From an uncultured virus (IMG/VR IMGVR_UViG_3300031841_003153) (taxonomy: Duplodnaviria; Heunggongvirae; Uroviricota; Caudoviricetes), in the IMG/VR virus record IMGVR_UViG_3300031841_003153: a DNA stretch of 55,112 nt; one strand, given 5' to 3'. Of the stretch, positions 332 to 44,674 are shown piece by piece. Position numbers and translations under genes: made by a program. The notes beneath the pieces were generated by a model. That model was not told where the DNA came from, searched no databases, and saw only the letters and a program-made list of their open reading frames with translations. The number at the start of each line of letters is the position of its first letter. Position 1 is the stretch's first letter.

Positions 332-3300
332 CTATCCCCCTGCCTTGAATGAATTCTTGTTAAACTTTTGATCAACCTCTTTCTTGATAATTTCTTCAAT
401 CTTAGGAGTCATCGCGTTGCCTACGGCACTAACTATGTTTGATACCTGTTCTTCCCCAAGATTAAATGTCATTGTCATATCCCCACTGAATGAATGGCTT
501 ATTTTCATTCCATTATTTATTGCGGTAGCTAGATTGTCTACAGCACCCGCGATGAAATCGAACTGTCCTAATATATTATCAAGCCTACTGCCAAATGCTG
601 CACTAAATTTATCAAATACCTCGGTAAGTGGTCCTGTGTTTATTTCTAGTGGACCCATTCCGCCACTGCCATTTCCACCATCTGATAGATATGAGGTTTT
701 CATACCCCCAACAACACCACCTTTGGCGAATTTCTGGGGCATGACACCATTTTCGTTCATCTCTTTAAGATTTTTCATTCCTATCTTTTGGGCGGACTTG
801 GGATTTACAACAAATTCACCGGGGGTAAGCATGGCAGGAATAGTGTCCTGTGTTCCACCTCCGTTGTTAAACCCTTGTGCCTGCTTTAAAAAGTCGGCGG
901 GGTTTTTGATTCCCGCACCTTTTAGTAGGTTGAACAAAAGTTTAAGAATAGCTTCTTGTCCCTGTGGGGCTTTTTTACCGGCCTGATTTTTATTTCTTGC
1001 GTTATCTGAGGTTTTTCCATTAGCCCTTGCGTACCTGTTTGCCACCGCTGGACCATTTGTCCTAAGAAGCCTGTTGTACTTGGCTTGTGAAAAACGATTA
1101 ATTTCTGATTTTTCGTTGGTTTGAAGCTGTCCGCTGGCAGCAGCTTGATCTTTTGCTTTTGCGGCATCAAGTTCTGCTTGTTTATCGGCCTCAATGTTTG
1201 CTTTGAGCGAGTCTCGCAATCCATCGTCTGGAAAAACGCCTTTAAGACTTTCGTCGGGCGGACCAATATCTTCTACAATTTTTTTAGATCGAGCATCCTC
1301 TTCTGCTTGTCTTTGCTTAACCTTAGCTACTTCTGAACCGTCACCTGTTGCTGCTGGTGCTGCTCCTGCTGGTGCTGCGTCGGCCTTATTTGGTTTTTTC
1401 TCTTCTGCTTCTTTACGTTTTTCCGGCGGGATGTATTTGTCTGCAAGGTTTCCTACGTCTCTTGTGTTTCTCCAATCCTCAATGTTGCCGGAATACCCAG
1501 CTTTTCTTGCGTAAACGAAGTCTTTTCTGTCCTCTCTTCTTTTAGAAGCATCCTCTCTAAGTCTGGTTTGATATTCACGTTCAGCATATTTTTCTGCTGC
1601 CTCTTTTTCAATCGGAGCGATAGCGTCAGAAGCAATATTGTTGTCTTTATAATATTGTTGTTTATATTTGCTCTTTTCTTCTTGAGATTTTTGGGACTCT
1701 CCCGTATTTGGATCGACAGTTAGACGGCGGACCTCGTCCCGCCGAATGGCTGACTGAATTCCTGCTGCAACGGCAGCCTCTTCGTTTTCAAAAATAGCCC
1801 CCGTTTCTCGATCTTTGTAAATATCGCTTCTTTTTGCCTGCTGTTCATCGTATTTTTTCTTTGCTTTTGCCCTAAGCTTCGGATCGCTACTGAAAGTTGG
1901 TTCTGGGCTTTTTCGTGTAACGGGTTTGTTTGGAGCATCTCCCGCAACCAGAATACCCTCATCATCAAATTTGACATCTAGCCCATTTTGCATAATTGCA
2001 TCAGTAGCGGCATCGGAACCAAAGAAACCAGACGAACGACCCATTGTTGCAAGCTGTCTATCTGAATAGGTTGCTTGGGTAGCTTCTTGGGCGATCTGGT
2101 CAGATATTTCACTATTTGTCAATTTCCTAGTCGAACCATCGGGCATTGTAATGGTTTCGTTTTGAAGCTCTCTAATTCTAGCAAAAGTACGAGCTTGTTT
2201 TTCTTCTTCTGTCTCGCCAAACGTTGGTCCAAGCTGGAACTCGCTGTTTAACCTTTCAATCTCTGCATCTTTTTCTCTATCTCTTGCTCTGCTGTCTGCC
2301 AAATCAACAACAGTTGCCCCTCCTTGATATGTGCCATCGGGCTGCCTTTTCCGTTCTTTTTGACCCGCTTCAAACCTCGCATCTGCTTCGTCGGCTCTTT
2401 TCTGTGCTTCTTTGGTTCTTTTGTTGTATGCTTCCTGTGCTTCGGCGTCTTTCCTCGCCTGAATTTCCCGTCTTTCTTTGGCAGTATAAAATTCTCCAGT
2501 TTCAGGGTTTTTAAATTCTTTATCTAAATCAGAAGTATCTACCTCTAAAAAGTCACCTCTTGCTCTTTTTTCAAGCTGAATTTTTTCATTTTGTAACTGT
2601 TCCAACTCGGCTCTGGCGGCATCAGAACCAGTTTCCGTAATCTCATCTTTTAATCTTTGTATTTGCGACTTATAGCTTTCGCTACTCAAGCCTACTAGCT
2701 CTTGTGTTCCGGGAGCAGGTTCACTAAACTCTCCAGTTTTTATGTCGTATCCAGTCCTGAGTTCGCCTCTATAATCAAATTTATTACTTTGTTGATCTAT
2801 TCGATCAAGTCTTTCCTGAGCATCAGCCTGACGACTAGCGGCTCTTCTCTGTCTTTCTCTGACCAATTGATTGTAGGTTGATTCAGATAACGACTGATCC
2901 TGCCTTCTCTCTTGGGCTTTGTATTTAGCATCAATATTAGGGTACTGAGTAGCTGCTTCTTCGGCTTTACCCTGTCTTACCAATTCACGATAAGCAATGT
3001 CTTTCGCTCTTGCTTCTCTCTGTCTCGCCTGTTCTTCTTCTTCTGCAATAGTTTCATTAAGTTTGCGTTCTCTTTCTTTAAACTCTTCTTCATTTTTCGG
3101 CTCTTGAAAATACACGCCCTTTTCTTCTGGGGTTCTTGCTGATCCGGCGACTGTTCCTTTATTTCTCGCGATAATTTCTGGGTTGAAATCAGAGAACGTA
3201 GATTCCACAGCAGATTGTGCCAGCAAGCCGCCTTCTTCTCGTTGGTCACGAATCGAACCACCCAAAAGAACGTCGAGATATGCCTGCTCCACGAAGTTCG

Positions 3301-6300
3301 GAGCCGTTGAACTGGATGCTTGAACTGCTTTGAGACGCCTTTGATTAATTTGTTCGCCACGCCTTCTTGCCGCCTCTTCAACGCTAATTCCTTCTCTTTT
3401 GGCAATTTCTTTAAGTTTCTCTCGTTCTCTCTGTTTTGAAATTACGGCAGTCGTACCGCTACCGCCACCAAAAAGATAAACAGCCCCACCTTTAGCTCGC
3501 TTTAAGGCTTCTTCTGCCTCTCTAACACCTGAAAGATCGAACTTTGACTTTTTACCAGAACCAAAAGATAAACCAGCATTGAACCCATTGGCAGCATAAA
3601 CGGTTCCGCCATTATTCATTTGTTGTAAAGTATCTTTTCCAATTTTATCAACAGAAGACTTCTTGATAACAAACTCACCCTGTTGCAGCATGGCAGGAAC
3701 CGTGTCGGTTCCCTTTGGCTTGAACACTTCTTCCATGCCTTTTGGTGTAGAAGCACTACCGGGAACCACTCCACCCCTATTCATGTAGACGGAGCCGCCT
3801 CTACTCTTAGTGACAGCTTGGGGACTGTCAGATTTATTATTATCCAAATCTTGAATTACCTTGACAGCAGAAGTAACGGCCTGTCCAGATACTTCAAGCT
3901 GCTTTTTTAACGATGATAAAACAGGGGTGAGTTTACCAAGGTTTTCTCTCAAACCATCAATTACTTCATTATTTCTTTTGATAACCTCTTGCTGCTGTTG
4001 TTCCCCGGCACCAATTTCCCCTTGGGCACCAGCTTGTGCGGCAGCCAAATCTTCTCCAAAAACATTACGAAGATCCTTACGAATACCCTTGAGTTCGGTT
4101 AGTTCTGCCGCTTCAATTCCGGCAAGTGCTAAAGATGCTGTCAACTCCTGCTTTCCCAATTCTTTGAGTTCGCCAAGCAGGGGATTTTCAGCTTTTCTAA
4201 GACCATCTATAAACTGATTCAATCCGCCAAGTCCCAGCCTTCCAGTTTCTCTGGCGGCAAGAATCTGCTTTAACTCTTTACCGGTGACTTGTTGACCTTC
4301 AAAATTTATAAGCTGGCTACCAACACTATCCAAGGCTTGGGAAATAAGTTGTCTTTGGTCACCGGTAGCACCAGCAATGCTTCCTTGAGCAAGTGCTCTA
4401 TTTAGTAACGCAAACCCTTTGAAAATTTCTTGCCTTTGGTCATCAGTACCAAAAGCTACAGACTCTTGTAACCCCTCTGCCTCGGCACGTCTTCCTCTAA
4501 GTTCAGACAAGTCTTTTTCAATATCTGCCGCTTTAGCAGACTGGTCTGCCAGTCTTTCTAGTTCTGCCCTTGCTCTAGCTGCACCCTTTGCCGCTTCGTT
4601 CGATCCTGCCTCTGCTTTAGAAGCCGCTATACCTAAATCATTTAGGTTATCACCGAATTCAGCACCGTTTCTTATTAAGTCTCGCTGTTTGTCTCTTAAA
4701 TCTTTAGATTTTTTTGTAAGATCGTTAAAAGCCTTCAAAGTAGCATTAACGTCGCCAGCCCTAGCACCAGCACGTAAAGCGTCTGGACCAAGAGCAATAT
4801 TTGCAGCCGCCCTTCTTCCACGCTCTCTTTCCTGTCTTGAGCGAGGGTTTTCAGAGGCTTTGGCGAGTCTGTCCTGATTACGCTCGAAAACCTTAGAAGC
4901 ATCAGCAAAAGCATTTATTGTACTTTCTTGTGCCGCGACAATTTTTGAATTTATTTGAGACTGCTTTTGAAGGAATTGATTTTGTATCTCTACCCCTCTT
5001 TTGAAAACCTCTATTTGGGCTCTTACATTTTCTTTTAGTTCTTCTGTAAGTTTTTGCTGATCTTCAAGACTTAAACCGCCACCAATTTTCTCACTACCTA
5101 TTGCCTTGTCAACATTTTTCTTAATTATCGCCCTAAGATCCGGCCCTAAACCATTTAGGCCACCCGGAATGCTTTTGGTTATTTCTTCGGTTAGTGCAGT
5201 ATTCAAATCTGGAATGTTTATCAACTCTCCATTTTCTGACTGTCTTTTAAAATCCGCAAAAACAGATGGAAGATCTCTTATGACTGTTTGCGTCTGACTT
5301 ATGCTTTTTGAAAAACCTTCCGCATCTTTGCCGATTACGCCTCTTCCAAGACGATTAATCCTTTCAATGGCTTTTTTATTAAGCTGTTCAAAAGGAACAT
5401 CAAAAACAGTTGTGTCAAACTCAATAGCCCCAAAACTACCCTCATTACCAATATCGTCAATTTGTTGATAAATGTTACCAAGAGAATCGCTTTGAGCTAA
5501 TAGTAGATTAAATGCACTTAAATTCTTATTTACTTTAAGCAGGGTCAAAGCCTGTTGTCTTTGTGCGTTTTCCGCTAGTAGTGTAGTAGTAGCGAGTTTA
5601 TTTTGAGCGACAAGCAACTCCTGTGCGGACACACTTTGTTCTAACTGGGCCTGCTCTATAGTTGCGTCTCTTTGTGTTTTCAAAGCGGCAACTTTGTCGG
5701 TGTCACCAGCTTCTTCTGCCGCTTTAATTCTTGACTTGAACGACAGGTTTACCAACTTCTCTATATTTTCTCGCGTTTCTACAAAAGAGGCGGCAAGTTC
5801 TGGAAATCGCTTTGTCAAGTCAGAAAGACTACCCACAGAAGAAAGGGCGGCTGGACCAAACTTGGTTAATTCGCTTATAGCTTCGGAAACGGCTTTTTTG
5901 CCTTCGATTTTTACGTTATTCAATTCCGAAACAAGATTTGTAGAAAGATCCGCAGAAGCCTTCTCAGCAGCCTCTACCTGTTTCTCCAATTCTTCTAGCT
6001 GCTTTATTCTGTTTGAAATACTTGCATCATCAGCTATCTCATTTTCAGATTTTAAAGTCTCCCCCGTTTCGGATACAATGCCTTCTTCAACAAGATTAGC
6101 TCTCAACTTTGCCCTATCTTCTCTAACCTTCTCCAATTTTTGTTGATTTTCTGCAATTTGAGCTTGTGCGTTGTCGATAAATCCACCAAGTAGCCCAACC
6201 TTTTGGGCGGCAGTAGCACCCGCATCACCAGCTTCTTTGAGTGCCTGTTGGAAATCTTTAGCAACTTTAATAGACCTAAACTGAACCTCGGCAGAGTTTC

Positions 6301-9300
6301 TTGCAATTGATGTGGTAAGTCTAAGGTTTTCCTCTTGCTGTTTAGCGGAAGCCTCTTGAGATTTTGCATAAAGATACGCAGCACCCGCACCAGCAATCAA
6401 CGCCGCTCCAAGGATCGTTCCAAGAACGGGAATTCCTTGCAAGGCAATACCGGCAGCGAAAAATCCACCAGCAGCAGCAGCGGCACCCGCCGCAGCACCG
6501 ACGAAGGCACCTTTAGTCTGATTACCTTCTTTGGCATTTAATTGTGCAATTCTTAGGTTTGCCACAGCCGCTTTTTCTCTAGCTTTTACAAACTTTTCTT
6601 CACTTGCCGGTTTTCCACCCTCTAATGCTTCAAGCTCTGCATCTGCAACCTTGTTGGCATTTTCTATTTGTATTTTTAAACCCTCTCTCAAGAAGGCGTT
6701 ATAAGCCTTTATACCAGCAATGAGGCCTGTAATGGCAATGGCGGCAACTGCTGCAACATTAGCGAAGGCGGCACCTTTACCTTGACCTTCACCACCACCT
6801 CCACCCCCACCACCAACTCCTTTTAAGGCGACAGAAGCCTGCCCCGCCGAAACTGCAAGATCTCTATTAGCGGCTTTTAAAATGGCACTGCTGGCAATTT
6901 GACCTCCGATCTCTAAGCCTAAAGAAGCAACTTGAGTAAATAAACCAATAGTTGCCGCCGCAGAATTTAAAGCAGCTTCGGTCTGCCTTTTAGTTCCTTC
7001 ATCAAGGCCAGCGAAACTTTCTACCAGAGTTCCTCCCACAAGGGTTATTCCTATGGCAGCATTTGTAAACTTATTTAAAACGTCAGAAAGATTATTAAAC
7101 TTATCACCGACTTCCTTAGCACGGGCGGCGGCTTCCTCTTGAGATTCTGTAGAGCCACCTCCACCACCGGGACCACTGGGACCACTGGGCAATTTCTTGG
7201 CTTTTCCTTCTTGTATTAATTTATCTGTCGCTTCTGTAAGTTGATCTTGGGAAATCTCGCCTGCGGCATAAGCATCGTTTAAATCTTTCATTTGCTTGTT
7301 TAAAACATCAGCCGCAGCTTGTCCTGCCACTTGGCCCTTACTCAAGGCTTCTGTACGACTACTACCATCGTTAAGAGCTTTTCTATAGGCTTGAACCGCT
7401 TTCTGACCCTCTCTAGTATCCTCTCCCAAATACTGGAAACTTTCGGCTAAAGCATCCGCTTCTCTTGCAATCTCAGCTATTTCATCACCAGAACGACCTT
7501 GAGGAAGACCCGGACCAAGAAATTTTCGACCCTCAGACTCTCCACCGACCCCACGTTGCTTCTTTCCGGTTCTATCCGCACCACCCGGAGAAATGAAGTT
7601 TTCAATATCTCCTGCCTTGCCCAATGCGTCTTGAATTTGGAGAGCCGTGTCTGCCGCAGAATCAAAATTCCTAGCAAAGTTTAGTACGGCTGTTTTAGCA
7701 CCGTCTGCACCAAGATTTAAGCTATTTATTTCTTCTGTAAGTTGTTTAAAAGCCGCAGCATTAGCTTTGGCCTGAGCGTTTACTAAAGCCAAATCTTTGG
7801 GTTTGGTTAAACCGAAATCTCCTGACTCAACAGGTCCACCACCAGCAGCAAACTTTTGAACACCAACGGCTCCACCAGCAGCAAAACCCTCAACGCCCTT
7901 TTTGTTCATCTTGTTTAGCCTACCGTAACCGATAGACTCAGCGGCTTTCTTGCTGAACACAAACTCACCCGGAGTGAGCATTGCAGGAACAGTGTCAGAC
8001 GGTGCTGGACCGTTTGCAGATCCACCTTTGTTTAGATATTTTGTTCCACCAACCTTTGTAAACCCAAGCTCTTTAAGTTCAGACGCTTTGTATTTTCTTC
8101 CTGTGGCAGTCTGAAAGTCTGACAAGGAGTATCCAGCACGCTCTGAACGATTAGGAAACCTTGCCCTAAGTGCCCTTTGAAGACCAGCCTTGTCTCCGCT
8201 ACCAGTATCAGCAGCTAAATTCTTGTATGTAGAACTACCCTTGTATTCTGCGGCAATCTCTTGGGCTATTTTACCCTTAATTCCTTCGGTCCCTGCCGCT
8301 GCATAACTAGACTTAGCGTCAACATAAGAACCGGGAAGGTTATCGTAATTATCTTTAACAGCACCACTAAGGCCATCTGGAAAATCAAAAGGAGCGTTTT
8401 GTGGAGCAGGTTTAAACCTGCCTTTGTTAGATAAGATATTGAGAGCGTTTTCAAAAGGTCCACCTAAAGCACCCGATGATCTAATTCTTTCTTTTAGCTT
8501 TCCTATATCGCTTGGATCAGGCGTAACACTACCAAGCCCTAAGTCTGCACCCAAACCACTAACAGCGTCATTGACCCCCTTAGCAGCACCCTCAAGAAGA
8601 GTATCTTTAAACCCATCGGAAGTTTTTTGGTTTAAGCCTTGTCTAACAATAGAATATTTCTTAGAAGAAAACTCTTTACTAAGACCTTTTCTTTGTGCTT
8701 CTGTGGACTTTGTGATATAAGGAGAAACATCCTTGATTCCAACATTTACCGACTCTGCCGCGATACCATCATCAGGATCTAAAATAGCAGCACCGACTTT
8801 GTTTTTTGTGGCTATTCCTCCAAGAGCGAATTTTTGAATCAAACCACCTAAAGCTGCGTTTTTTGCGTTTTTTCTTTTTGTTCCATCATTCTTGGTTTTT
8901 CTAGCTAATTCTTCACTATCGGTAACGTCCTGAATAAGGGTTATTCTTCCAAGATTAATATCGTCTCCATCAGAACTGGCAGTAAGTCTTTGCCTTGTAA
9001 ATTGATCCTTAACCCTCTGGTCGGTTTTGGTGATCGGGTCAATAGCAGCACCAACCATCTTTTCCCCCAGCCCCTTAGTGGAAAAGTCGGCAACGTTTCC
9101 GTCACGGGTTAGGCTTTTTATTTCGTAACGCTGTCCACCGGGACCGGTTGCATCAAGTCGAGAATTGGAAGCGTCTTTTTCTAAGTTTATACCAAGTAAA
9201 GACTCGGCAACTCGCTCAAATGCAAAACCTCTTTCTTGAGCGTTTTTTGCCTTAACCGCTTGCTTATATTGTCTAACCCCTCCTATTCTTTGGTCTACTT

Positions 9301-11644
9301 CATTAACGTCAATTTCTTTGTTTTTCTGACGGGTAAACGAAAACTCATCTTGCGTATTGAAGCGAGTCGCCTTTCTACCGCCACTACCGGACGGGTTAAA
9401 CTCTTCATTTAATGGCTTTCTATAGGTAGTATTTATATCTTCAACAAATTGCCTAGATTTTGCAAAGTCCCTAACATTACCACCAGCGTTAAACTTTTGA
9501 GCTTCCGGCTCAGGATTTGCCTGAGTGGGCTGAATCAAAGATATGTCAGTAGCCTTCTTTTTGAAACTCTTAAAAAGTTGAAGTATTTTCTTTGACTCTT
9601 CTTCATTTGCGGCAAAGCGGGACGCTTTTAATTGACCAACGCTTCTAGTATCGCCACCAGCCTGAGTCTCATCGGCCATTTCGACTCTCTTATCCCTTCT
9701 GGCAGTCAGAGTCTCTTGGTCGGGGATAACCGCTGTAATCGCCTTTGCCGCCCTTACTAGATCAACCGTGGTCTGAGAGAGAGGAACTTCGCCTTTTCCA
9801 CGAACTTTTGTTGGTTTTTTGGTTGTCTGTGCCCCACTAAGCACAATAAAGTCGTTATACTTTTCTAAATCCTGTTTAGACTTTACAAAATTTTCACCAT
9901 AGATTTTTCTTGCGAGAGTTGTCTTACCCGAACCGGCTGGACCCCACACAAGTTGTTTGATGTTTTTTCCTTGTATAATCGCATCTCTGATTGCATTTGC
10001 TTCCGATTTGTCTTTAATTTGATCCGTATCGAGAATACCAGTTTTTCCACCCTCCGCAAACTTCTGTGCCCTTGGGATGTAACCACCTTTGGCTCTTTTT
10101 ACACCGCTACCACCAGAATTCATAGCCTGTAAACGACTGGCACCTATTTCTTTGGCACTACTTTTTCTTATTACAAACTCTCCCGGCTCCAGCATAGCAG
10201 GAACCGTATCACCATTCCCCTGACCGGGAACAAATCCTCCGCGATTAAATCCGAGAATTTTACCACCGGCATTTCTTCTTTGCGACCCTCTACCAAAAAT
10301 CTGTAGCAATCCGGGTGCCAAACTTCGCCCCAGCTTGATTGCTGCAATCTTGGTTAGTAGTGGCAATACAGTCTCAAGAGACTCGGCAAACTTTAAGAAA
10401 GTATTAGCAAGTTTAAGAACAAATTTAGCGGAATCTTGGAATGTGTCACTTGCAGTAAACTTACGAATAAGAGCATCGAAAGATTCTCTAGTTTTACTTA
10501 ACTGAACAGCCAAAGATTTTTGTGCTTCTTGGGCGTCCTTAGAAGTAGACCCGACCGAGTTGTTTGCTACCGCCAATGCCCTCTGAGTAACCTCAAACTG
10601 TTTAATCAGAGGAATAACCTTACCAATCTGACGGAATCCACCAAGCTGTTCAACAATCTCGTTGAATCGAACATCTTTGGGATCTAATCCGGCAAGCCCA
10701 ATCGCTAATTTTTCAATAGCCTTTAATGGACCGACAAATTTACCTTCTGCATCTTGCAGACTGATGCCCAGTTCATTAAGAGCATCAATTGTGTCTTTTC
10801 TCTGTAATCTAGTAAAAATGGTACGGAAACCAGTAGCAATTGTTTCAGCACCTTCGCGAGTAGTTTGACGAACGCTTGTGAAAAGAGCAATAAGCTCTTT
10901 AAGATTACCACCGGCAGCTTGAAAAACACCACCAGTTCTACGAACAGTTGCGATAAGGTCGGAAGATTCTACAGCAAAATTCTTAGAAACAGCATTGATA
11001 GCGTCTAAAGACTGCTCTAAAAACTTAATGTCATTACCAGTTTTAGCGGCCTGTCTACCAAACTGATTAAGAATAGCAATCGCACCCTCTGTGGTGTCGA
11101 TAATATTATCAAAGGTGGGAGCTAGTGTTGTTTGAGCCAAAACTTCCAACGCCTGCTTGGTCTTTAAAGCTGAAAGACCAGCCTGAGCCAATACCCTAGA
11201 AGTTTGAAGAAGTTCTGCATTAGCGACACCAAGACTTGTAGAAAGTCTGGTGACCTCACCCTGCAAACTTTGAAGTTGATCTAATGTTTTTCCAGTAACC
11301 TGAGAAATCTTAACGAGTTCTCTTTCAAACTCAATAGCACTACCAATGGAGGTTTTAATACCCCTAGCGAGGGATATGAAACTACCTGTGGCAACAGTAA
11401 TAACACTGAATCTACGAGCGGCCTCGGCAACATTTCGACCTAAAAGATTAAAACTCTTAGAAGCTCTGTCTCCCTCTTTGGCAACCGATCCTAAATTTTG
11501 CTGAACAGTAGCCAAATTCTTAGCATTTTTACCAACATCAATATTTAATTTGATATTGCTCAAATCACGCTGAATTTGATTTGCTACGCCTCTTGTGTTA
11601 GGAGCTTGTAATTGAAGTTGTGCCGTTAAATTGAAAGCTGCCAT
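332..11644 (-). CDS. Tape measure protein (3770 aa) with internal cargo-like domains
   Basis: N-terminal TP901-type TMP region (AIEFERELVKISQVTG, NAVSKNFAVESSDL, ETIATGFRTIFTRL), long Ala/Gly helical and coiled-coil stretches, four DT(V/I)PAML.xGEFV motifs; downstream of tail tube and chaperones. Confidence 0.92.
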   Translation of the reverse strand: MAAFNLTAQLQLQAPNTRGVANQIQRDLSNIKLNIDVGKNAKNLATVQQNLGSVAKEGDRASKSFNLLGRNVAEAARRFSVITVATGSFISLARGIKTSIGSAIEFERELVKISQVTGKTLDQLQSLQGEVTRLSTSLGVANAELLQTSRVLAQAGLSALKTKQALEVLAQTTLAPTFDNIIDTTEGAIAILNQFGRQAAKTGNDIKFLEQSLDAINAVSKNFAVESSDLIATVRRTGGVFQAAGGNLKELIALFTSVRQTTREGAETIATGFRTIFTRLQRKDTIDALNELGISLQDAEGKFVGPLKAIEKLAIGLAGLDPKDVRFNEIVEQLGGFRQIGKVIPLIKQFEVTQRALAVANNSVGSTSKDAQEAQKSLAVQLSKTRESFDALIRKFTASDTFQDSAKFVLKLANTFLKFAESLETVLPLLTKIAAIKLGRSLAPGLLQIFGRGSQRRNAGGKILGFNRGGFVPGQGNGDTVPAMLEPGEFVIRKSSAKEIGASRLQAMNSGGSGVKRAKGGYIPRAQKFAEGGKTGILDTDQIKDKSEANAIRDAIIQGKNIKQLVWGPAGSGKTTLARKIYGENFVKSKQDLEKYNDFIVLSGAQTTKKPTKVRGKGEVPLSQTTVDLVRAAKAITAVIPDQETLTARRDKRVEMADETQAGGDTRSVGQLKASRFAANEEESKKILQLFKSFKKKATDISLIQPTQANPEPEAQKFNAGGNVRDFAKSRQFVEDINTTYRKPLNEEFNPSGSGGRKATRFNTQDEFSFTRQKNKEIDVNEVDQRIGGVRQYKQAVKAKNAQERGFAFERVAESLLGINLEKDASNSRLDATGPGGQRYEIKSLTRDGNVADFSTKGLGEKMVGAAIDPITKTDQRVKDQFTRQRLTASSDGDDINLGRITLIQDVTDSEELARKTKNDGTKRKNAKNAALGGLIQKFALGGIATKNKVGAAILDPDDGIAAESVNVGIKDVSPYITKSTEAQRKGLSKEFSSKKYSIVRQGLNQKTSDGFKDTLLEGAAKGVNDAVSGLGADLGLGSVTPDPSDIGKLKERIRSSGALGGPFENALNILSNKGRFKPAPQNAPFDFPDGLSGAVKDNYDNLPGSYVDAKSSYAAAGTEGIKGKIAQEIAAEYKGSSTYKNLAADTGSGDKAGLQRALRARFPNRSERAGYSLSDFQTATGRKYKASELKELGFTKVGGTKYLNKGGSANGPAPSDTVPAMLTPGEFVFSKKAAESIGYGRLNKMNKKGVEGFAAGGAVGVQKFAAGGGPVESGDFGLTKPKDLALVNAQAKANAAAFKQLTEEINSLNLGADGAKTAVLNFARNFDSAADTALQIQDALGKAGDIENFISPGGADRTGKKQRGVGGESEGRKFLGPGLPQGRSGDEIAEIAREADALAESFQYLGEDTREGQKAVQAYRKALNDGSSRTEALSKGQVAGQAAADVLNKQMKDLNDAYAAGEISQDQLTEATDKLIQEGKAKKLPSGPSGPGGGGGSTESQEEAAARAKEVGDKFNNLSDVLNKFTNAAIGITLVGGTLVESFAGLDEGTKRQTEAALNSAAATIGLFTQVASLGLEIGGQIASSAILKAANRDLAVSAGQASVALKGVGGGGGGGGEGQGKGAAFANVAAVAAIAITGLIAGIKAYNAFLREGLKIQIENANKVADAELEALEGGKPASEEKFVKAREKAAVANLRIAQLNAKEGNQTKGAFVGAAAGAAAAAGGFFAAGIALQGIPVLGTILGAALIAGAGAAYLYAKSQEASAKQQEENLRLTTSIARNSAEVQFRSIKVAKDFQQALKEAGDAGATAAQKVGLLGGFIDNAQAQIAENQQKLEKVREDRAKLRANLVEEGIVSETGETLKSENEIADDASISNRIKQLEELEKQVEAAEKASADLSTNLVSELNNVKIEGKKAVSEAISELTKFGPAALSSVGSLSDLTKRFPELAASFVETRENIEKLVNLSFKSRIKAAEEAGDTDKVAALKTQRDATIEQAQLEQSVSAQELLVAQNKLATTTLLAENAQRQQALTLLKVNKNLSAFNLLLAQSDSLGNIYQQIDDIGNEGSFGAIEFDTTVFDVPFEQLNKKAIERINRLGRGVIGKDAEGFSKSISQTQTVIRDLPSVFADFKRQSENGELINIPDLNTALTEEITKSIPGGLNGLGPDLRAIIKKNVDKAIGSEKIGGGLSLEDQQKLTEELKENVRAQIEVFKRGVEIQNQFLQKQSQINSKIVAAQESTINAFADASKVFERNQDRLAKASENPRSRQERERGRRAAANIALGPDALRAGARAGDVNATLKAFNDLTKKSKDLRDKQRDLIRNGAEFGDNLNDLGIAASKAEAGSNEAAKGAARARAELERLADQSAKAADIEKDLSELRGRRAEAEGLQESVAFGTDDQRQEIFKGFALLNRALAQGSIAGATGDQRQLISQALDSVGSQLINFEGQQVTGKELKQILAARETGRLGLGGLNQFIDGLRKAENPLLGELKELGKQELTASLALAGIEAAELTELKGIRKDLRNVFGEDLAAAQAGAQGEIGAGEQQQQEVIKRNNEVIDGLRENLGKLTPVLSSLKKQLEVSGQAVTSAVKVIQDLDNNKSDSPQAVTKSRGGSVYMNRGGVVPGSASTPKGMEEVFKPKGTDTVPAMLQQGEFVIKKSSVDKIGKDTLQQMNNGGTVYAANGFNAGLSFGSGKKSKFDLSGVREAEEALKRAKGGAVYLFGGGSGTTAVISKQREREKLKEIAKREGISVEEAARRRGEQINQRRLKAVQASSSTAPNFVEQAYLDVLLGGSIRDQREEGGLLAQSAVESTFSDFNPEIIARNKGTVAGSARTPEEKGVYFQEPKNEEEFKERERKLNETIAEEEEQARQREARAKDIAYRELVRQGKAEEAATQYPNIDAKYKAQERRQDQSLSESTYNQLVRERQRRAASRQADAQERLDRIDQQSNKFDYRGELRTGYDIKTGEFSEPAPGTQELVGLSSESYKSQIQRLKDEITETGSDAARAELEQLQNEKIQLEKRARGDFLEVDTSDLDKEFKNPETGEFYTAKERREIQARKDAEAQEAYNKRTKEAQKRADEADARFEAGQKERKRQPDGTYQGGATVVDLADSRARDREKDAEIERLNSEFQLGPTFGETEEEKQARTFARIRELQNETITMPDGSTRKLTNSEISDQIAQEATQATYSDRQLATMGRSSGFFGSDAATDAIMQNGLDVKFDDEGILVAGDAPNKPVTRKSPEPTFSSDPKLRAKAKKKYDEQQAKRSDIYKDRETGAIFENEEAAVAAGIQSAIRRDEVRRLTVDPNTGESQKSQEEKSKYKQQYYKDNNIASDAIAPIEKEAAEKYAEREYQTRLREDASKRREDRKDFVYARKAGYSGNIEDWRNTRDVGNLADKYIPPEKRKEAEEKKPNKADAAPAGAAPAATGDGSEVAKVKQRQAEEDARSKKIVEDIGPPDESLKGVFPDDGLRDSLKANIEADKQAELDAAKAKDQAAASGQLQTNEKSEINRFSQAKYNRLLRTNGPAVANRYARANGKTSDNARNKNQAGKKAPQGQEAILKLLFNLLKGAGIKNPADFLKQAQGFNNGGGTQDTIPAMLTPGEFVVNPKSAQKIGMKNLKEMNENGVMPQKFAKGGVVGGMKTSYLSDGGNGSGGMGPLEINTGPLTEVFDKFSAAFGSRLDNILGQFDFIAGAVDNLATAINNGMKISHSFSGDMTMTFNLGEEQVSNIVSAVGNAMTPKIEEIIKKEVDQKFNKNSFKAGG

Positions 11645-33931: not shown

Positions 33932-35911
33932 CTAGTACAAACCTTCTGTTTTTTCGGTAAACCACGCTGGCCCCTGAAAAAGTTTATCATCAACAGAGCC
34001 AAAATGAGGCGTTCCATCAGCAAATCCACCAATAGCACCAACGTCCAAAGTCGTCTTTTCCGTATTTAAATGTCGGGCAGACATATTAGCCATAATCAAT
34101 GCTGAGTAACGGTCTTTTCTTAGTCTACTTTTTCTTCCTGCACCGGTCTTAACCTCTGGCGTATCCCACCGCTCACGACCAGAATTTGTTACGGTCATGA
34201 TAATCATGGATAGTTCGTCTTTTAGTTCTTCGATTTCCATAACACAGTCTTCTAATGTGTCATACTTTCTGCCGACAGACTTATCAACCTCTAGTGCCAC
34301 ACCCAAGCTAACCGAATCAAAGTAAGGGAATAGAACCATCTTGTCCTCAAAGTCTTTTCTGATACCGTGATTTGCCTCTGCAAGCCAATCATACTTTGCA
34401 AACTGGCACATTCTAAGAATATGCAAACCGGGATAATCATCCGTGTCCTTTGCCTTATCCTCAATTACCGGCCAAATAGCCACTTCGCCATCTGGTATCT
34501 TGTCCTTGTCGTGCAAAGCCTCCATAACAGCAATACCTCCACCCTGTGCATCCATAGCGATTTCGGCACAAGGGAAAACCTTCATAAGCTGCCTGATCTT
34601 TTTGGCACAGAAAGAATAAAAGTCGTCCTCGTCAACTATTTTAGATTTCAACAATTCCTTATGTGATTTTCTAGTAGTTGTCCAACAGTGAACAATCTTT
34701 CTATGGTCTTTATCAACCTCCATTACCACAATGCTAAAATTATCAACCTCAGAAGCGGGGTCAACACCAAAAACATATTTCTTGCTAGAATCGCCCTTTA
34801 GCGATGCCTCAAACCAAACTTCTCCAGAGGGCAGTTTAGCCGGATTAGACGGGGAGGTTGTACAAGATTCTATCAGGCTACGCTTGAAAAACCCTTGGCT
34901 ATCCGTTGTAAATATGGCACCATATTCCATCTGGTAAATGCCAGTATGAACAGTAGCCTTTGCTCTACCTACTTGACCAGCGTCCATAAACCCTAAAGGG
35001 AGTTTGTTTACGGGAATACGAGAAACAGAATAGTTTGTCCAATCAAAGTCAAGAGGAACAGAACCATTAAACACTTCTTCTAACTTTTTAATATCGCCAC
35101 CACTACTGACTATGGCGTGATACCTTTTATGATATTCAGAAAAGTGATTAAAATCATAATAAGCAGTACCACTTAAAATGATTTGGTTTGACATATCTAC
35201 TGGATCTTCTGAAACAGAAGTAGGAATAGCCACTCCTAGTCTGGCAGCCATAGCCTCTTTAGCTTTTTGCTTCGTCTTTTCGATAGGCGAGGAGGCAACT
35301 GCGGCAAATCCGGCTACAACATTTTCAAAAATGTCTCTAGGAATAGAGGCGAATTCGTCGGCAATAATATCATTAGCTCTCTGGCCCCTGATTTTGCTTC
35401 CGTCGCCCAGTGGAAGTGCCGTTACTGTACTATCACCTATGTACATCACACAGCGGTCTACGTCCTTTCTAGGCCCGCTACCGCTTGAACACAAATCTCT
35501 TAAAACCGGTGCATTTTTCCAGATAGTGTCCATATACTCAAAAAGAACTTTTGATTGACGGAAAGCAGCACCAACAATGATAATCTTTCGTCGTGGCATG
35601 AATAAGGCACGTAAAATAGCGTATAAAGCAAGTATAAAAGACTTACCCATACCACGAGTTCCGATCAGCATAGGGAACTTCCTATTCCACATTTCTTGCA
35701 GTAAAACCGCTTGGAAAGGAGAAAGTTCAATGTTTAGAATATGCTTGCAGGCAAAGCTAAAGTATTCCGGCCTCATCATTACCCATGAGAGCCTCTTTAT
35801 TAATTCTTCGTTGTCTTCACCCATTACAAAATCCATAGGATTAAATAACGTGCTTTCGTCAACGTCAATACCTAGCCAAGCATCGTCTAACTGCTTTTGT
35901 ATATCCTTCAT
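33932..35911 (-). CDS. terL: Terminase large subunit
   Basis: Walker A GTRGMGKS, IRGQR, Walker B IIADE, RNase H-like FGVDPA and KDRYSA; likely start MKDIQ at 35911. Confidence 0.92.
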   Translation of the reverse strand: MKDIQKQLDDAWLGIDVDESTLFNPMDFVMGEDNEELIKRLSWVMMRPEYFSFACKHILNIELSPFQAVLLQEMWNRKFPMLIGTRGMGKSFILALYAILRALFMPRRKIIIVGAAFRQSKVLFEYMDTIWKNAPVLRDLCSSGSGPRKDVDRCVMYIGDSTVTALPLGDGSKIRGQRANDIIADEFASIPRDIFENVVAGFAAVASSPIEKTKQKAKEAMAARLGVAIPTSVSEDPVDMSNQIILSGTAYYDFNHFSEYHKRYHAIVSSGGDIKKLEEVFNGSVPLDFDWTNYSVSRIPVNKLPLGFMDAGQVGRAKATVHTGIYQMEYGAIFTTDSQGFFKRSLIESCTTSPSNPAKLPSGEVWFEASLKGDSSKKYVFGVDPASEVDNFSIVVMEVDKDHRKIVHCWTTTRKSHKELLKSKIVDEDDFYSFCAKKIRQLMKVFPCAEIAMDAQGGGIAVMEALHDKDKIPDGEVAIWPVIEDKAKDTDDYPGLHILRMCQFAKYDWLAEANHGIRKDFEDKMVLFPYFDSVSLGVALEVDKSVGRKYDTLEDCVMEIEELKDELSMIIMTVTNSGRERWDTPEVKTGAGRKSRLRKDRYSALIMANMSARHLNTEKTTLDVGAIGGFADGTPHFGSVDDKLFQGPAWFTEKTEGLY

Positions 35912-36555
35912 ATTAGTATTCTGTCTGCAAATCCATAGTAGACAGCTTCTTCCGAATTCATGTACCAATCTCCTTTTTCCATTTTTCTTTTTAGAAACGA
36001 CTTAACCTTGGAAAGATTATACTCCCTTTCTTTAGCAAATTCGCTTTCTACAACTCTATTTGCATAAATGTTGATCATGAGGTTTTTTTCATAATCTTGA
36101 TAGCTGGCGTAATTCTGCATACTTTGAACGTCACCAGAAGCGTCCGTAGACCCATAATGTACCATAAACATACAATGCTCAGAAAGAACCCTTTCCCTAG
36201 CTGCCTGCATGATAATCGTGCCCATAGAACAAATCATGCCAAAACCAAAAATCGTACACTTATACCTGCTGCCAGAATTTTTTTGCCAGTTATTTATAGC
36301 ATCATATATTGCCATTCCAGAATACCAACAACCGCCACCTGTTTGTAGGTATATTTCTATGTCTAAACCCTCTTGTAATATGTGAAGGTTTTTTAAAAAC
36401 GTATGGTACATCCTGTAGTCCACGCCGGGATTTTCTCCCGAATCATCTTTTTCCTGTAGGTAGATTCTTCTTCTTTCAACATCCAAATTATGAAGATGAA
36501 TATCAGAAATCAAAATCTCCTGTTTCCTGCTGCCCATATTCAGACCTCTCATCAA
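35908..36555 (-). CDS. ClpP-like serine protease
   Basis: RRIYL, TGGGCWYSGMAIYD, GMICSMG (Ser), MVHYG (His), DWYMNSEEAVYYGFADRI. Confidence 0.85.
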   Translation of the reverse strand: MMRGLNMGSRKQEILISDIHLHNLDVERRRIYLQEKDDSGENPGVDYRMYHTFLKNLHILQEGLDIEIYLQTGGGCWYSGMAIYDAINNWQKNSGSRYKCTIFGFGMICSMGTIIMQAARERVLSEHCMFMVHYGSTDASGDVQSMQNYASYQDYEKNLMINIYANRVVESEFAKEREYNLSKVKSFLKRKMEKGDWYMNSEEAVYYGFADRILI

Positions 36556-37093
36556 ATAGTTCTGCTAGTCTCTTAAATATGCTATTGCAAATTGTAAAGG
36601 CGTTTTTCTTGTTGTCAGCAAAGAGTATTTGAACTTCGTACTTGATGCCAATCTCCAGCAATGCTTTCAATAAATACTTTCCTGTTATCTTGGTTTGTTT
36701 AACCACCTGAAACCTTTTATAGCTTGGCAGTGGACACTCGCCAAGACGGTATTTCTCCCAAGTCTCCCTATCATTTTCGTCCAGAAGGCTCAAGGGGTAG
36801 TTTATTAGATCAGATGCGGAAAATTCCAAAATGATATAACGAAACGGAAAGTCTCTCATTCTTTCTATTTCGTTATAAAATGCTTGTTTTTTCTTTCCAA
36901 GATTATTAGCAATCTCAGATGGAGACGCTTTACGCTCTACGCAAACAACTTCTTCATACCCCTTCAAGGTATAGTCGCCCGTTTGAAGCGTTCCGATCTC
37001 CATTCCGTCACATCTGTCGTAAGGAGTAAAAAACCACCCCTCTTGCTCTCTAGTGTCCTGTATTACTGTATACTTAGTCTTCTTTTTTGGCAT
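36503..37093 (-). CDS. ERCC4-domain nuclease
   Basis: IQDTREQ, GDY, VERKAS motifs. Confidence 0.8.
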   Translation of the reverse strand: MPKKKTKYTVIQDTREQEGWFFTPYDRCDGMEIGTLQTGDYTLKGYEEVVCVERKASPSEIANNLGKKKQAFYNEIERMRDFPFRYIILEFSASDLINYPLSLLDENDRETWEKYRLGECPLPSYKRFQVVKQTKITGKYLLKALLEIGIKYEVQILFADNKKNAFTICNSIFKRLAELFDERSEYGQQETGDFDF

Positions 37094-37409
37094 CTAAATC
37101 CCAGCTTAAAAACCTACTTTTTTCTTCTGGGCAGTCGCACCCAGCTTCGTCGCAGCAGTCTTGTTCAACAGGCTCTTCCGCTGGTGCTGGTGCTGGTGCT
37201 GGTGCTGGTGCTGGCTTCCCCTTGCACACAACGGCACACGATTTTCCACCATCCCAAACAACAGAAACGCCCTCTGCTTTTAGTTGTTGTTCTGCGGCCT
37301 TGCAAACCTTGTATAATTTTGGCACAACTTTTTCAGGTGCAACTTCTACACAATCTCCCTCTTGACTAAGGCCCATACCAGCTTCGATGATTCGATCTTG
37401 AAAACTCAT
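37074..37409 (-). CDS. Hypothetical protein with (PA)n linker
   Basis: 111 aa, KPAPAPAPAPAPAEE, Cys-rich; overlaps both neighbours. Confidence 0.55.
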   Translation of the reverse strand: MSFQDRIIEAGMGLSQEGDCVEVAPEKVVPKLYKVCKAAEQQLKAEGVSVVWDGGKSCAVVCKGKPAPAPAPAPAPAEEPVEQDCCDEAGCDCPEEKSRFLSWDLDAKKED

Positions 37410-37672
37410 TTCTTGTTTCTCCTTACCTTTTCGGTAAAATATGTAATATAGTGAGACTCATGCCCTGTTACTTCTTTGTGACAAGCTCTACATAGGGCTA
37501 TGCCATTGTCGGGGTCAAACCTAAGAGTGCTTGCCGTACTCCATTTCATTATATGGTGAACAACACACCTCTTCTTTTTATTACACATTTGACAAGTATA
37601 CTTGTCTCTTTTTAGAACCTTTAGCCTAAACTCTTTGTAAACTGGGTCGTTGTAGTCTCGCCTCTTTGACAT
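37406..37672 (-). CDS. HNH endonuclease
   Basis: RDKYTCQMC...VHHI...NGIALCRACH. Confidence 0.88.
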   Translation of the reverse strand: MSKRRDYNDPVYKEFRLKVLKRDKYTCQMCNKKKRCVVHHIMKWSTASTLRFDPDNGIALCRACHKEVTGHESHYITYFTEKVRRNKK

Positions 37673-38738
37673 CGTGATCCACCATTCTGTTCGCTAAATC
37701 TGTAAAACTAACCCGCCTTTCCCAATGTAATTGTTTCTCCGCTTTTTTTGGTATTCCTAAGAGATAATCCACTTCTGCTGGGCGATAAAACTCTGGATCA
37801 ATAACCACAAGCCGACTCCAATCGTCAATACCCACTCTGGCAAAAGCAGCGTCCAGAAAGTCTCTAACCGAATACGTCTCGCCCGTAGCGATCACATAAT
37901 CATCGGGCGTTTCTTCTTGTAACATAAGCCACATAGCGTTAACGTAATCTTCTGCATGGCCCCAGTCTCGCTTTGCATCTAAGTTACCAAGACGCAGCTT
38001 GGGAAAACCCTCTCTGTCCATAAGGGAGTTATAAAGCATGTTTTCATCATCACTAAACTCCTCTTTTAGAATTTGCCCCAATTCGTTTGTTGGATTCCTC
38101 CATTTCACAAATTCGCCAATCCACTTAGTAATCTTTCGAGTAACAAAGTTTTCACCCCGCCTTTCGCTTTCATGGTTAAACAAAATGCCACAACTTCCGT
38201 GAATTCCATAACCCTCTCTATAATTTCTTACAAGGTGGTGTGCAGCAAGTTTTGCAATAGCATATGGGCTTTGCGGTACAAAGTTCGTATTTTCGTCTTG
38301 ATATTTAACATCTCCGTATCTACCATTGATTACTGTGAAGTTTTTACCAAACATCTCACTGCTGCTTGCTTGATAAAACTTAATTTGGTCTTTTCGCGAA
38401 GAATATCTTATTGCCTCTAAAATATTCAGCACTCCACCGGCAGTAACGTCCCAAGTTAGGCTTGGCTGCTTGAAACTTGTCCCAACATGAGATTGTGCAG
38501 CAAGATTGTAAATCTCATCAGGCTCTTCTTCCTTGATTACATTGCTAACGCTAAAAGCATCAGTAATATCGCCTTCGACGATCTTAATTTTGGGCAAGAT
38601 ATGTGAAATTCTATCTAGAGTGGGAACGCTCACCCTTCTGGTGATTCCAACCACGTCATAACCCTTATTAACTAAGAGTTCTGCTAGATAGCTGCCGTCT
38701 TGTCCTGTTATTCCAAAAATAATAGCCTTTTTATTCAT
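37626..38738 (-). CDS. gmd: GDP-mannose 4,6-dehydratase
   Basis: GITGQDGSYLAE, NLAAQSHV, QASSSE, SPYAIAK, FNHESERRGENFVTRKI, GNLDAKRDWGHA, RPAEVD. Confidence 0.95.
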   Translation of the reverse strand: MNKKAIIFGITGQDGSYLAELLVNKGYDVVGITRRVSVPTLDRISHILPKIKIVEGDITDAFSVSNVIKEEEPDEIYNLAAQSHVGTSFKQPSLTWDVTAGGVLNILEAIRYSSRKDQIKFYQASSSEMFGKNFTVINGRYGDVKYQDENTNFVPQSPYAIAKLAAHHLVRNYREGYGIHGSCGILFNHESERRGENFVTRKITKWIGEFVKWRNPTNELGQILKEEFSDDENMLYNSLMDREGFPKLRLGNLDAKRDWGHAEDYVNAMWLMLQEETPDDYVIATGETYSVRDFLDAAFARVGIDDWSRLVVIDPEFYRPAEVDYLLGIPKKAEKQLHWERRVSFTDLANRMVDHDVKEARLQRPSLQRV

Positions 38739-39543
38739 TGTTTTCCTCATCCTGTCTTATTAGTGTTTCCGGGGTGAGAAACGGCTGATCTACAGCATCG
38801 TCCTCATATGTGTGGTACTGAGAAAGGCGTTCTTTCTCTGCATTGGCGGCTAGTCGCATTTTTTCCATATCTATACCAATCTTAGTACGAAATTCGGAAT
38901 CTGTTGCAAGCTGTTTCACAAGTGCAGCAAAAGTTTGCTTGCTGTCTTCAATAGCCTTGATTCTTTGCTCTCTGGTTCCTTTCAGATCTTTCAGCATCGT
39001 TGCTTTGCGAGTCTGGAGATCCTTGTAGTCTTTGCTAAGAGTTTCTTGCGATGCCCTCAGAACAGCTACCTGACGCTCCAAGTTCATAATAAGGTCTGTG
39101 TCCCACTGATCCCTGTCAACCTGCTTTGCGTCATGGACCATTTGTTCATAAACTGATATTTGAGATTGATTATCGGCCTGCCCCTTTAAGATCCTATTCA
39201 TAAGGATTTCCAGCTTGATTGTGTCGATAATCTGCATTTCCTCGGTGTGGAACACATCGTCCTTGAACTGACTCCACATTTTCTTAAAGTGAAACTCAAA
39301 CATTTCCAATTCTGGTTCAGAAAACTGTGCTTTGAGTTCACGGTAGTAAGGTCGGCTCTTTAACTCATTGGCTACTTCGGCCTCTTTCTTTTGCTTTACA
39401 GAAAACCCTATGTTTTTGGCTATCCACTCTTTGACGCTATCTGGATCACGATCCAACTCAGAAGCTATTTCGATGATAGAAAGAACCTCGGCATTGGCCT
39501 CGATAAATTTCATATCCGAATTGGAAAATCTACCCTTTTTCAT
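38731..39543 (-). CDS. HTH/Myb-like plus coiled-coil protein (terminase small subunit candidate)
   Basis: N-terminal GRFSNSD...IASELDRDPDSVKEWI; helical C-terminus; upstream in packaging operon. Confidence 0.45.
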   Translation of the reverse strand: MKKGRFSNSDMKFIEANAEVLSIIEIASELDRDPDSVKEWIAKNIGFSVKQKKEAEVANELKSRPYYRELKAQFSEPELEMFEFHFKKMWSQFKDDVFHTEEMQIIDTIKLEILMNRILKGQADNQSQISVYEQMVHDAKQVDRDQWDTDLIMNLERQVAVLRASQETLSKDYKDLQTRKATMLKDLKGTREQRIKAIEDSKQTFAALVKQLATDSEFRTKIGIDMEKMRLAANAEKERLSQYHTYEDDAVDQPFLTPETLIRQDEENNE

Positions 39544-40058
39544 TCTTCAAACTCTCCGCTTATAATTTGCTCTACTACTTGAATTATATATGCCTTTCGG
39601 CTTTTGGGCAAAGAGGAGTTGCTCTGTAATTTTAAGTAATCACGTCTTAGATGAGATGGAAGCTTTCTATCAATCAATTCCATGATCTCTTTAAGGTGTA
39701 CTTCATTAGATGTACTATCTCTGGTGAATACACTATATATGGCCTCTATTGATACAGGCTCTAGTAACGCCTTTTTTCTATCTTGAATTTTTTGGGCACT
39801 TGTACCGTAATCTAAACGATAGTAGTTATCCCTCTTGAAAGTTTTAAGCCTATTATTTATATGTGTGTACATAAAGTTTTCCAAGGGGCGAGACGGATCA
39901 TATCTTTCAAGTCCACTAACACCAATAAGAAAAGCCTCTTGTTCTATATCCTCTACCTCATATCCTGCAAAAACATACTTTGGGGCTAGTTTTTTAGATA
40001 TCTTTAAAATCACCTCGGTAACATATTCCCGATCAAGTCCTTCTGGTATCCTCATCAA
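39540..40058 (-). CDS. Phage sigma70-family factor (candidate late sigma)
   Basis: Region-2-like EDIEQEAFLIGVSGLERYDPSRPLENFMYTHINNRL. Confidence 0.75.
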   Translation of the reverse strand: MMRIPEGLDREYVTEVILKISKKLAPKYVFAGYEVEDIEQEAFLIGVSGLERYDPSRPLENFMYTHINNRLKTFKRDNYYRLDYGTSAQKIQDRKKALLEPVSIEAIYSVFTRDSTSNEVHLKEIMELIDRKLPSHLRRDYLKLQSNSSLPKSRKAYIIQVVEQIISGEFEE

Positions 40059-44170: not shown

Positions 44171-44674
44171 ATGAAAAAAGCATTTGTATTTGATTTTGAT
44201 GACACTCTCGCAACCACCGATTGCAAGGTTATCGTTCGTCGTCGAAACTCCATTGGTGGAAGGTTTACTGTTCGTAAATTGACTCCTGCTGAGTTCAATA
44301 CTGACGTTCTCGCAGACGGTGAAGAATATGACTTTTCCGAGTTCCGTTCTGCTGAGTTCATCCGTTCGGCTAACCCTACTTTTCTTATGGCTCTTGCCCA
44401 AGAGGTTCACAATGAAGGGCATAGCGTTTATGTTCTTACTGCTCGTGCTGATAATGTGGCCGATGCAATCACTAGCTGGTTGCTTGGTTTTGGTGTTAAA
44501 CCTGTTCGCGTTTTCGGTGTTGGTTCCGATGATAAAAAGGTAGACATTCCAGCAGAAAAGCAAAAGGTTTTGAGAACCTTAAATCAGCTTTTCGATGTTG
44601 TCTACTTTTACGATGATGACCAACACAATGTTGACCTTGCTGGTCAAGTTGGTGTCAAGACCTATTTGGTATAA
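44171..44674 (+). CDS. HAD-superfamily phosphatase
   Basis: Motif I FDFDDTL, motif II VLTAR, conserved Lys, motif IV FYDDDQHN. Confidence 0.85.
   Translation: MKKAFVFDFDDTLATTDCKVIVRRRNSIGGRFTVRKLTPAEFNTDVLADGEEYDFSEFRSAEFIRSANPTFLMALAQEVHNEGHSVYVLTARADNVADAITSWLLGFGVKPVRVFGVGSDDKKVDIPAEKQKVLRTLNQLFDVVYFYDDDQHNVDLAGQVGVKTYLV

Follow-up and report, generated by a model that had tools for sequence, protein, structure and literature searches.

Non-contractile phage tails are, to our knowledge, thought to deliver little beyond DNA and cell-wall enzymes. The enzymes so far described as embedded in tape measure proteins (TMPs) are cell-wall hydrolases (PMC1796659; papers are cited here by PMC number, each for part of its text). 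Such host-like enzyme domains are found in mycobacteriophage TMPs with the TM4 motif 3, where they are present in some phages, lacking in others and active at infection (PMC1796659). Two other groups of phage proteins are also close: the polyvalent proteins, in which unrelated domains (ADP-ribosyltransferase (ART), GNAT and zeta-like kinase) share one virion-associated chain that is mosaic among orthologs and proposed to be injected (Iyer et al., 2017; PMC5512222), and the MuF polymorphic toxins, in which a phage structural protein carries a variable enzyme domain (Jamet et al., 2017; PMC5576092). Lambda gpH and T5 pb2 are both TMPs that undergo processing close to the C terminus (PMC12617516, PMC10038345). 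Here we describe the TMP gene of IMGVR_UViG_3300031841_003153, a 55,112-nt stretch of DNA from an uncultured marine virus of the Caudoviricetes (the whole stretch is called the window), whose product holds three enzyme-like modules (M1–M3) in tandem. The computational analysis shows that the slot is fenced, that its domains are discrete, folded and under purifying selection, and that they are exchanged at linkers. We put the probability that this TMP carries a cassette of polymorphic enzymes, with cargo ejected together with the TMP, at roughly 60%.

The window TMP differs from those of lambda and T5 in having four joints (J1–J4), which fence nuclease- and kinase-like domains that are internal and can be exchanged. 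Lambda gpH has the same joint (gpH 733–782), at the same relative place as J4, but it has one joint only and no known enzyme. TM4-type TMPs differ in their cargo, which is a peptidoglycan hydrolase, whereas that of the window is predicted to carry out nucleic-acid- or nucleotide-type chemistry and is arranged in tandem at defined linkers. The gene and the elements in question are:

332..11644, minus strand: TMP gene, one open frame of 3,770 aa with PF10145 and PHROG tape-measure matches
10637..11257, minus strand: conserved N-terminal tape-measure core, aa 130–336 (PF10145, E 3e-25, above cut-off)
10061..10249, minus strand: joint J1, aa 466–528, left fence of the cassette (FNRGG...DTVPAML.PGEFV...MN), a lambda gpH/JBD30-type C-terminal element
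9494..10060, minus strand: M1, aa 529–717, 189 aa, optional, opened by QKFAEGG; GPAGSGKT, lid-like RxxR and DxRS
8831..9493, minus strand: M2, aa 718–938, 221 aa, optional, opened by QKFNAGG; PD-(D/E)xK-like, E810-D831-E841-K843
8036..8830, minus strand: M3, aa 939–1203, 265 aa, near-constant with a variable helical tail, opened by ALGGLIQK-FALGG; putative nuclease, E1065-D1087-D1109-K1111-K1125
7838..8035, minus strand: joint J2, aa 1204–1269, the cassette's right fence, with two FAAGG units after it
3572..3784, minus strand: joint J3, aa 2621–2691
716..877, minus strand: joint J4, aa 3590–3643, 127 aa before the C terminus

Each joint is centred on DT(V/I)PAML, which occurs four times in the TMP, at aa 479 (10190–10210), 1217 (7976–7996), 2647 (3686–3706) and 3600 (827–847), within an element of ~50 aa (FAxGG...DTVPAMLTPGEFVI...IG..NL..MN...FAxGG). 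A profile of 24 joints matches lambda gpH 733–782 (E 1.3e-4), two copies in mycobacteriophage Douge gp16 (E 1e-10) and JBD30 gp46 1019–1068 (E 0.014), with a fourth TMP, 8VJH, at E 0.36. DTVPAML with its flanking FAxGG is the duplicate of a C-terminal element already known from TMPs, which an earlier reading of this DNA from its letters alone (the sequence-only reading) had missed. That reading had noted FAxGG motifs near the other DT(V/I)PAML copies; they do recur, but at 3686 the opening motif is YMNRGG and not a strict FAxGG.

Relatives were compared in a set of 120 full-length proteins, made up of the window TMP and 119 of the 120 best among 1,904 matches (the identical P0002 was left out); the set is biased to close relatives and its members are not independent. 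These proteins have 3–7 joints each, and J1 starts at aa 355–485. The last joint is found 60–200 aa before the C terminus in 109 of the 120 as in lambda, and J4 is therefore probably the ancestral copy, with J1–J3 as its duplicates.

Within the cassette the modules are bounded by short glycine-rich linkers, namely QKFAEGG (aa 527–533), QKFNAGG (716–722), QKFALGG (937–943) and KYLNKGG (1202–1208). These motifs, like GPAGSGKT, RGFAFE, RLDATG, YEIKS, GGPFE, PFDFP and YVDAKS, are all where the sequence-only reading had placed them, and its three modules between two DTVPAML copies measure 189, 221 and 265 aa. The linker consensus over 27 matches is A-L-G-G-L-I-Q-K-F-A-x-G-G. FxxGG is seen nine times in the TMP against 1.4 expected from composition, and eight of the nine copies belong to the cassette or to joints, the ninth being the final five residues. 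The TMP's C terminus reads FKAGG-stop (335–349, minus strand), the linker motif in bare form. When boundaries were set by domain profiles first and linkers scored only afterwards, a linker was found at 24 of 27 module–module boundaries compared to 12 of 744 windows of the same length inside domains; the three boundaries lacking one have related GG motifs or are imprecise. Both the excess of FxxGG over composition and this enrichment at boundaries led us to reject a chance origin of the motifs. At the DNA level five linkers of the window form a family of 22-nt repeats (73–86% alike), which could act as seeds of recombination.

Slot 1, between J1 and J2, is 144–741 aa long in the 120 proteins. 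According to the domain profiles it holds an M3-type domain alone in 87 of them, M2 with M3 in 10, an M2-type domain alone in 3, an SNase-like domain alone in 2 and other combinations in 18. A nuclease-like domain is present in every slot (120/120), PD-(D/E)xK-like of the M2 or M3 type in 118 and SNase-like in two. The three modules are unequal, a point also missed by the sequence-only reading: M3 is near-constant (114/120) and M2 optional, while M1 is optional and occurs in this slot in 1 of the 120. The combination M1+M2+M3 of the window is unique in the set. The combination of M2 and M3 gave zero matches in 50,697 annotated phage records, and a search of viral contigs with M3 alone returned only the contig of L001.

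Close relatives differ in this part. L001, with an N-terminus 91% identical to that of the window TMP, has M1, M2, an additional repeated insert and M3, while L008 (N-terminus 90% identical) has an M3-type domain alone. DNA similarity between the window and both L008 and L024 ends within J1 at aa ~495–501 and returns within J2 at aa ~1212–1216. M3 itself can be replaced: among 6,441 pairs compared, M3 is <35% identical in 51 of the 128 pairs with an N-terminal identity of at least 85% (e.g., 100% vs 18%), and the window and P0004-6 are 90% identical in the N-terminus and 19% identical in M3. Conversely, 22 pairs with an N-terminus <65% identical have M3 >55% identical. In trees, 30 of 51 supported N-terminal splits contradict the M3 tree, compared to 6 of 51 for a second N-terminal part of the same length. 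The stretch beyond J2 diverges too in many close pairs, and mosaicism is therefore not limited to slot 1. The proposal that the motifs mark module-swap junctions, and that modules would vary at them among relatives, is borne out by these comparisons; as judged from sequence, the linkers and joints are sites at which domains are evidently acquired, dropped and exchanged.

The second and third modules had both been proposed to be PD-(D/E)xK-like. For M2 this is supported by the motif, with a probable fold of this type. Its model has a pLDDT of 91.8, and the motif E...D...(D/E)xK is kept across its 28 domains (E in 27, D, E/D and K/R in all 28). The list of structural matches from VIA-align consists mostly of PD-(D/E)xK nucleases, weak but consistent, and Foldseek gave no match at E ≤ 0.001 for M2 or M3. 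An M2 profile found nothing significant among PDB sequences, and no Pfam family was found for the 28 M2 members. For M3 the proposal is partly supported, by conserved residues and by homology to M2: all five putative catalytic positions (E, D, D/E, K/R and K) are present in 114 of 114 domains, and the M3 core is homologous to M2 (hhalign 85.8%, motifs in register). The AF2 model of M3 is confident (pLDDT 91.2), but its fold was not confirmed by four structure searches, whose lists were full of helical hairpins; the VIA-align list had no PD-(D/E)xK chain, which does not exclude that fold. The top Atlas score for M3, 0.81, is a lead only, and neither M2 nor M3 has a family in Pfam or PHROG. M3 is a putative PD-(D/E)xK nuclease. 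Compared with known PD-(D/E)xK nucleases (FAN1 VRR-NUC, CdiA-CT, Hjc), M2 members stand out in having no Pfam family, and M3 is tied in solely via the M2 profile. dN is well under dS in M1, M2 and M3, with dN/dS of ~0.26 for M2 and ~0.07 for M3.

The first module, proposed to be a P-loop domain, is best read as a small P-loop kinase, given its Walker A motif, its stand-alone relatives and the AAA_33 matches of one such relative in Atlas. Walker A residues G35, G38, G40 and K41 are invariant in 11 of 11 sequences, as are R117, R120, D132 and R134; the RxxR we take to be a kinase lid. Pfam matches are limited to the P-loop (AAA_33, E 0.004, below cut-off), and searches of PDB sequences with M1 profiles gave Walker A stretches only. 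HMMER found 29 relatives of M1 among 1.84 billion representatives, including proteins of 101–322 aa, a size range in which a word-indexed search had found none. Among the 27 relatives examined (the repeat protein P0132 and the partially matching P0143 were set aside), 10 have the module after an FxxGG-type linker at varied slot positions, 12 after a second delimiter, GF[IV]PNF, 4 are stand-alone and 1 is of another type. The stand-alone versions (P0134, P0137, P0148 and P0149) are 147–159 aa long and convenient for assays; in Atlas, P0148 scores 0.90 to AAA_33 clusters and 0.87–0.88 to zeta-toxin clusters. Proteins delimited by G[FY][IV]PNF with a kinase module, some also with an M3-type domain, are P0127, P0133, P0136, P0139–P0142, P0144–P0147 and P0150, several of them without a joint match. 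In P0124 a HAD-like end immediately precedes the kinase module, an order that presumably resembles polynucleotide kinase-phosphatase. Relative to L001, M1 has dN 0.078 and dS 1.48 (dN/dS ~0.05).

Other enzyme-like domains come and go among the relatives. The two SNase-like slots have DGD, RxxGYDAYE and GR motifs, with a Pfam SNase match of just E 0.038 for L114. The cargo of L013 includes an ART above the Pfam cut-off, and HAD-like domains give a weak HAD_PNKP match (E 0.02). In a second, redundant set of 134 DNA loci with two joints, L078 has M3 in the following slot and, between J1 and J2, a module that we take to be GNAT-like from its motif, with no Pfam match. L163, in the same set, is the one real exception to the nuclease-like slot, as its cargo consists solely of a module of ~210–270 aa with an invariant H...P..N...D. 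This optional module is seen in L163 (5046–5672), L064 (5043–5750), L038 (5064–5807), P0009, P0025 and P0099. No Pfam family of note was found for the two members scanned, and PDB rows were spurious only; guessing from the motif, it could be an HNH-like nuclease. L001 (12845–13732) has about three tandem copies of a further module of ~71 aa (RADQLRIGD...), each opened by LAGG or AAGG, and L088 (5526–5738) and P0099 (aa 947–1018) have a single one.

This family shares a trait with the polyvalent proteins, as a single virion-associated polypeptide combines enzyme domains that are unrelated and is mosaic among orthologs. Pfam scans of the TMP and its modules, in which some regions had no assignment, found none of the polyvalent hallmarks MPTase, ArdC-N and LPD, and polyvalent proteins have another carrier and another linker grammar (PMC5512222). 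In MuF toxins the variable domain is C-terminal, whereas the window TMP has no MuF domain and its cargo is internal (J1–J2) and in tandem. A small downstream ORF follows 89.4% of MuF toxin genes (PMC5576092). No small immunity-type ORF followed the TMP gene in 11 of 11 loci, where the longest ORF beside the TMP stop has at least 230 aa and that of the window runs off the end. Membership among MuF-type polymorphic toxins was rejected, as the cargo is internal and no small downstream ORF is present. By analogy, the cassette would work like a polyvalent protein or a MuF toxin built on a TMP. The word "tape" is absent from the main texts of PMC5512222, PMC9503650 and PMC5576092, and the part of PMC7824862 considered here mentions it once, as a DNA conduit. 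Among the papers listed in our searches and the passages cited here, we found no description of linker-fenced nuclease/kinase cassettes in TMPs, a scope outside which subscription papers, supplements and Iyer's external architecture lists may hold such fusions. What the present analysis adds is the cassette of three enzyme-like modules, the homology between M2 and M3 and the near-obligatory nuclease-like slot.

The mechanism that we propose starts from duplicated C-terminal joints that fence an internal slot, in which the linker (A/F)xGG-h-h-QK-FAxGG joins self-contained domains, a near-constant nuclease-like one and kinase-, HAD-, SNase-, ART- and GNAT-like ones that come and go; this cargo would be diversified as the short repeats of linkers and joints recombine. 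The TMP chain would be threaded unfolded through the tail lumen, a state that could keep the enzymes inactive inside the producing cell, where an immunity gene is not evident. It would be ejected before the DNA, with the hydrophobic part between J2 and J3 as a channel, and the cassette would enter the cytoplasm and fold there. Cutting at F|AxGG would free M1, M2 and M3 as separate proteins; otherwise the modules would work tethered. The likeliest job of M2 and M3 would be to cleave the DNA of the host, or DNA that competes, within the first minutes of infection, and that of M1 to phosphorylate nucleic-acid ends or a small nucleotide-type substrate in counter-defence.

Whether the linkers are cut at F|AxGG is close to an even call, which we judge slightly on the unfavourable side. 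The case is made by analogy to T5 pb2, which is cut after R1127, parting a muralytic motif from the remainder (PMC10038345). The cut-site sequence FVPR|AEGG resembles QKF-AEGG of the window and is reminiscent of GF[IV]PNF, and in both proteins the site would part an enzyme domain from the rest, although the T5 cargo is a C-terminal muralytic domain. Several observations count against the cleavage step. R1127 is also a trypsin site and is at odds with the earlier assignment to V1148 (PMC11937520), the joint profile has no match in T5 pb2, including around R1127, and the authors of the JBD30 study model the joint as a hook and merely speculate on a cut at its end (PMC11445458). The portions of PMC13033339 and PMC12724387 consulted contain no cleavage data. 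A fuller version, in which a widespread aquatic lineage of tailed phages would use its TMP as a cleavable polyprotein, seems doubtful to us: before the genome arrives, duplicated lambda/T5 maturation signals would free into the cytoplasm an obligatory polymorphic nuclease and, optionally, a kinase, phosphatase, ART or acetyltransferase domain, and the unfolded state in the tail, not an immunity gene, would give self-protection.

The joints might instead be structural hooks that are never cut. The modules would then stay tethered and serve as pilot domains or DNA binders, by which the incoming genome is gripped, pulled or shielded, and their nuclease folds would be kept for binding. We consider this unlikely, because complete sets of catalytic-type residues persist in M2, M3 and the SNase- and HAD-like modules, and a purely mechanical role leaves interchangeable ART, HAD and kinase modules in one slot unexplained.

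Less probable still is a selfish cassette of the homing type, whose nuclease would, in mixed infections, cut rival TMP alleles and be copied in via the flanking joints while the other modules hitchhike. The homing cycle model predicts empty alleles and decayed active sites, yet there are zero empty slots among the 120 (the shortest has 144 aa) and zero decayed active sites among the 114 M3 domains, and the same junctions are used by non-nuclease enzymes. The TMP gene of ICP1 has introns with homing endonucleases (PMC10055350), but an endonuclease borne by an intron or intein was rejected here, as the frame is continuous with no intron break, no Cys is available for an intein and no slot is empty. 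Near-neutral length filler, captured at glycine-rich repeats under selection on tail length alone, would fit the control of tail length by TMP length (PMC1796659) and the 144–741 aa span of the slot, but it is largely refuted and very improbable given dN/dS of ~0.05, 0.26 and 0.07 for M1, M2 and M3, invariant catalytic-type positions in families of 15–30% identity and confident fold models of M2 and M3.

Two further features of the TMP lie outside the cassette:

6392..6766, minus strand: hydrophobic, possibly membrane-spanning segments, aa 1627–1645 and 1713–1751, between J2 and J3
878..3571, minus strand: second variable slot, aa 2692–3589, between J3 and J4, 898 aa and highly charged

Hydrophobic segments are found between J2 and J3 in 114 of the 120 proteins and inside slot 1 in none. 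The second slot has no Pfam or PHROG match and no BLAST homolog among the 119 relatives. Cys is absent from every counted region of the TMP, with two Trp and one His in the same regions; it makes up 0.01% of residues across the 120 TMPs and 0.0% of 39,153 slot residues, compared to 0.85% in 21 other proteins of the window.

The TMP is of the PF10145 type, its domain being encoded by a very long gene within the virion module, and genes for terminase, portal and a Clp-type protease are located upstream of it (Pfam, PHROG). Directly upstream of the terminase gene, 35908–40058 (minus strand) encodes a Clp-type protease, an ERCC4 nuclease, an HNH protein, a GDP-mannose 4,6-dehydratase and a sigma-70 region 2 protein. 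A separate HAD-like ORF with a weak HAD_PNKP match is present at 44171–44674 (plus strand). Among the best 25 of 56 records, no cultured relative of the TMP exceeds ~25% identity. The sequence occurs in seawater and aquatic viral metagenome runs from six studies, each possibly the source of this DNA, and no RNA dataset is among the runs listed as carrying it. Contigs from two of four runs (X6 and X15) cover 7000–11600 unbroken with zero differences, which lends weak support against an assembly artefact, as either run may be the DNA's own source. None of the four runs gave a clean module-skipping contig, though contigs drop rare variants. In run X20 a co-occurring variant is seen at 9701–10850; its differences are numerous, affect M1 and the N-terminal region, and many of them are spaced in threes. 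Matches to genome contigs scatter over metagenome bins of unrelated phyla, and the host therefore cannot be named. The family is common, as at least 529 stretches were confirmed in viral contigs and at least 491 in metagenome contigs.

Swap joints together with varied enzyme-like domains suggest that the enzymes which the tail may inject into the host form a variable set. For lambda gpH, neither the cut site nor the protease is known (PMC12617516). What the linker predicts is a cut at x|AxGG in natural substrates with several sites, which makes the lambda question testable; if the cleavable-polyprotein reading is true, F|AxGG would also mark the long-unmapped cleavage signal of gpH. The slot cargo is a catalogue of candidate counter-defence enzymes, with M2 and M3 outside any Pfam family, and, if the cassette is indeed ejected with its carrier, effectors would have a pre-early delivery route in a fenced, recombining TMP slot that takes up nuclease- and kinase-like domains.
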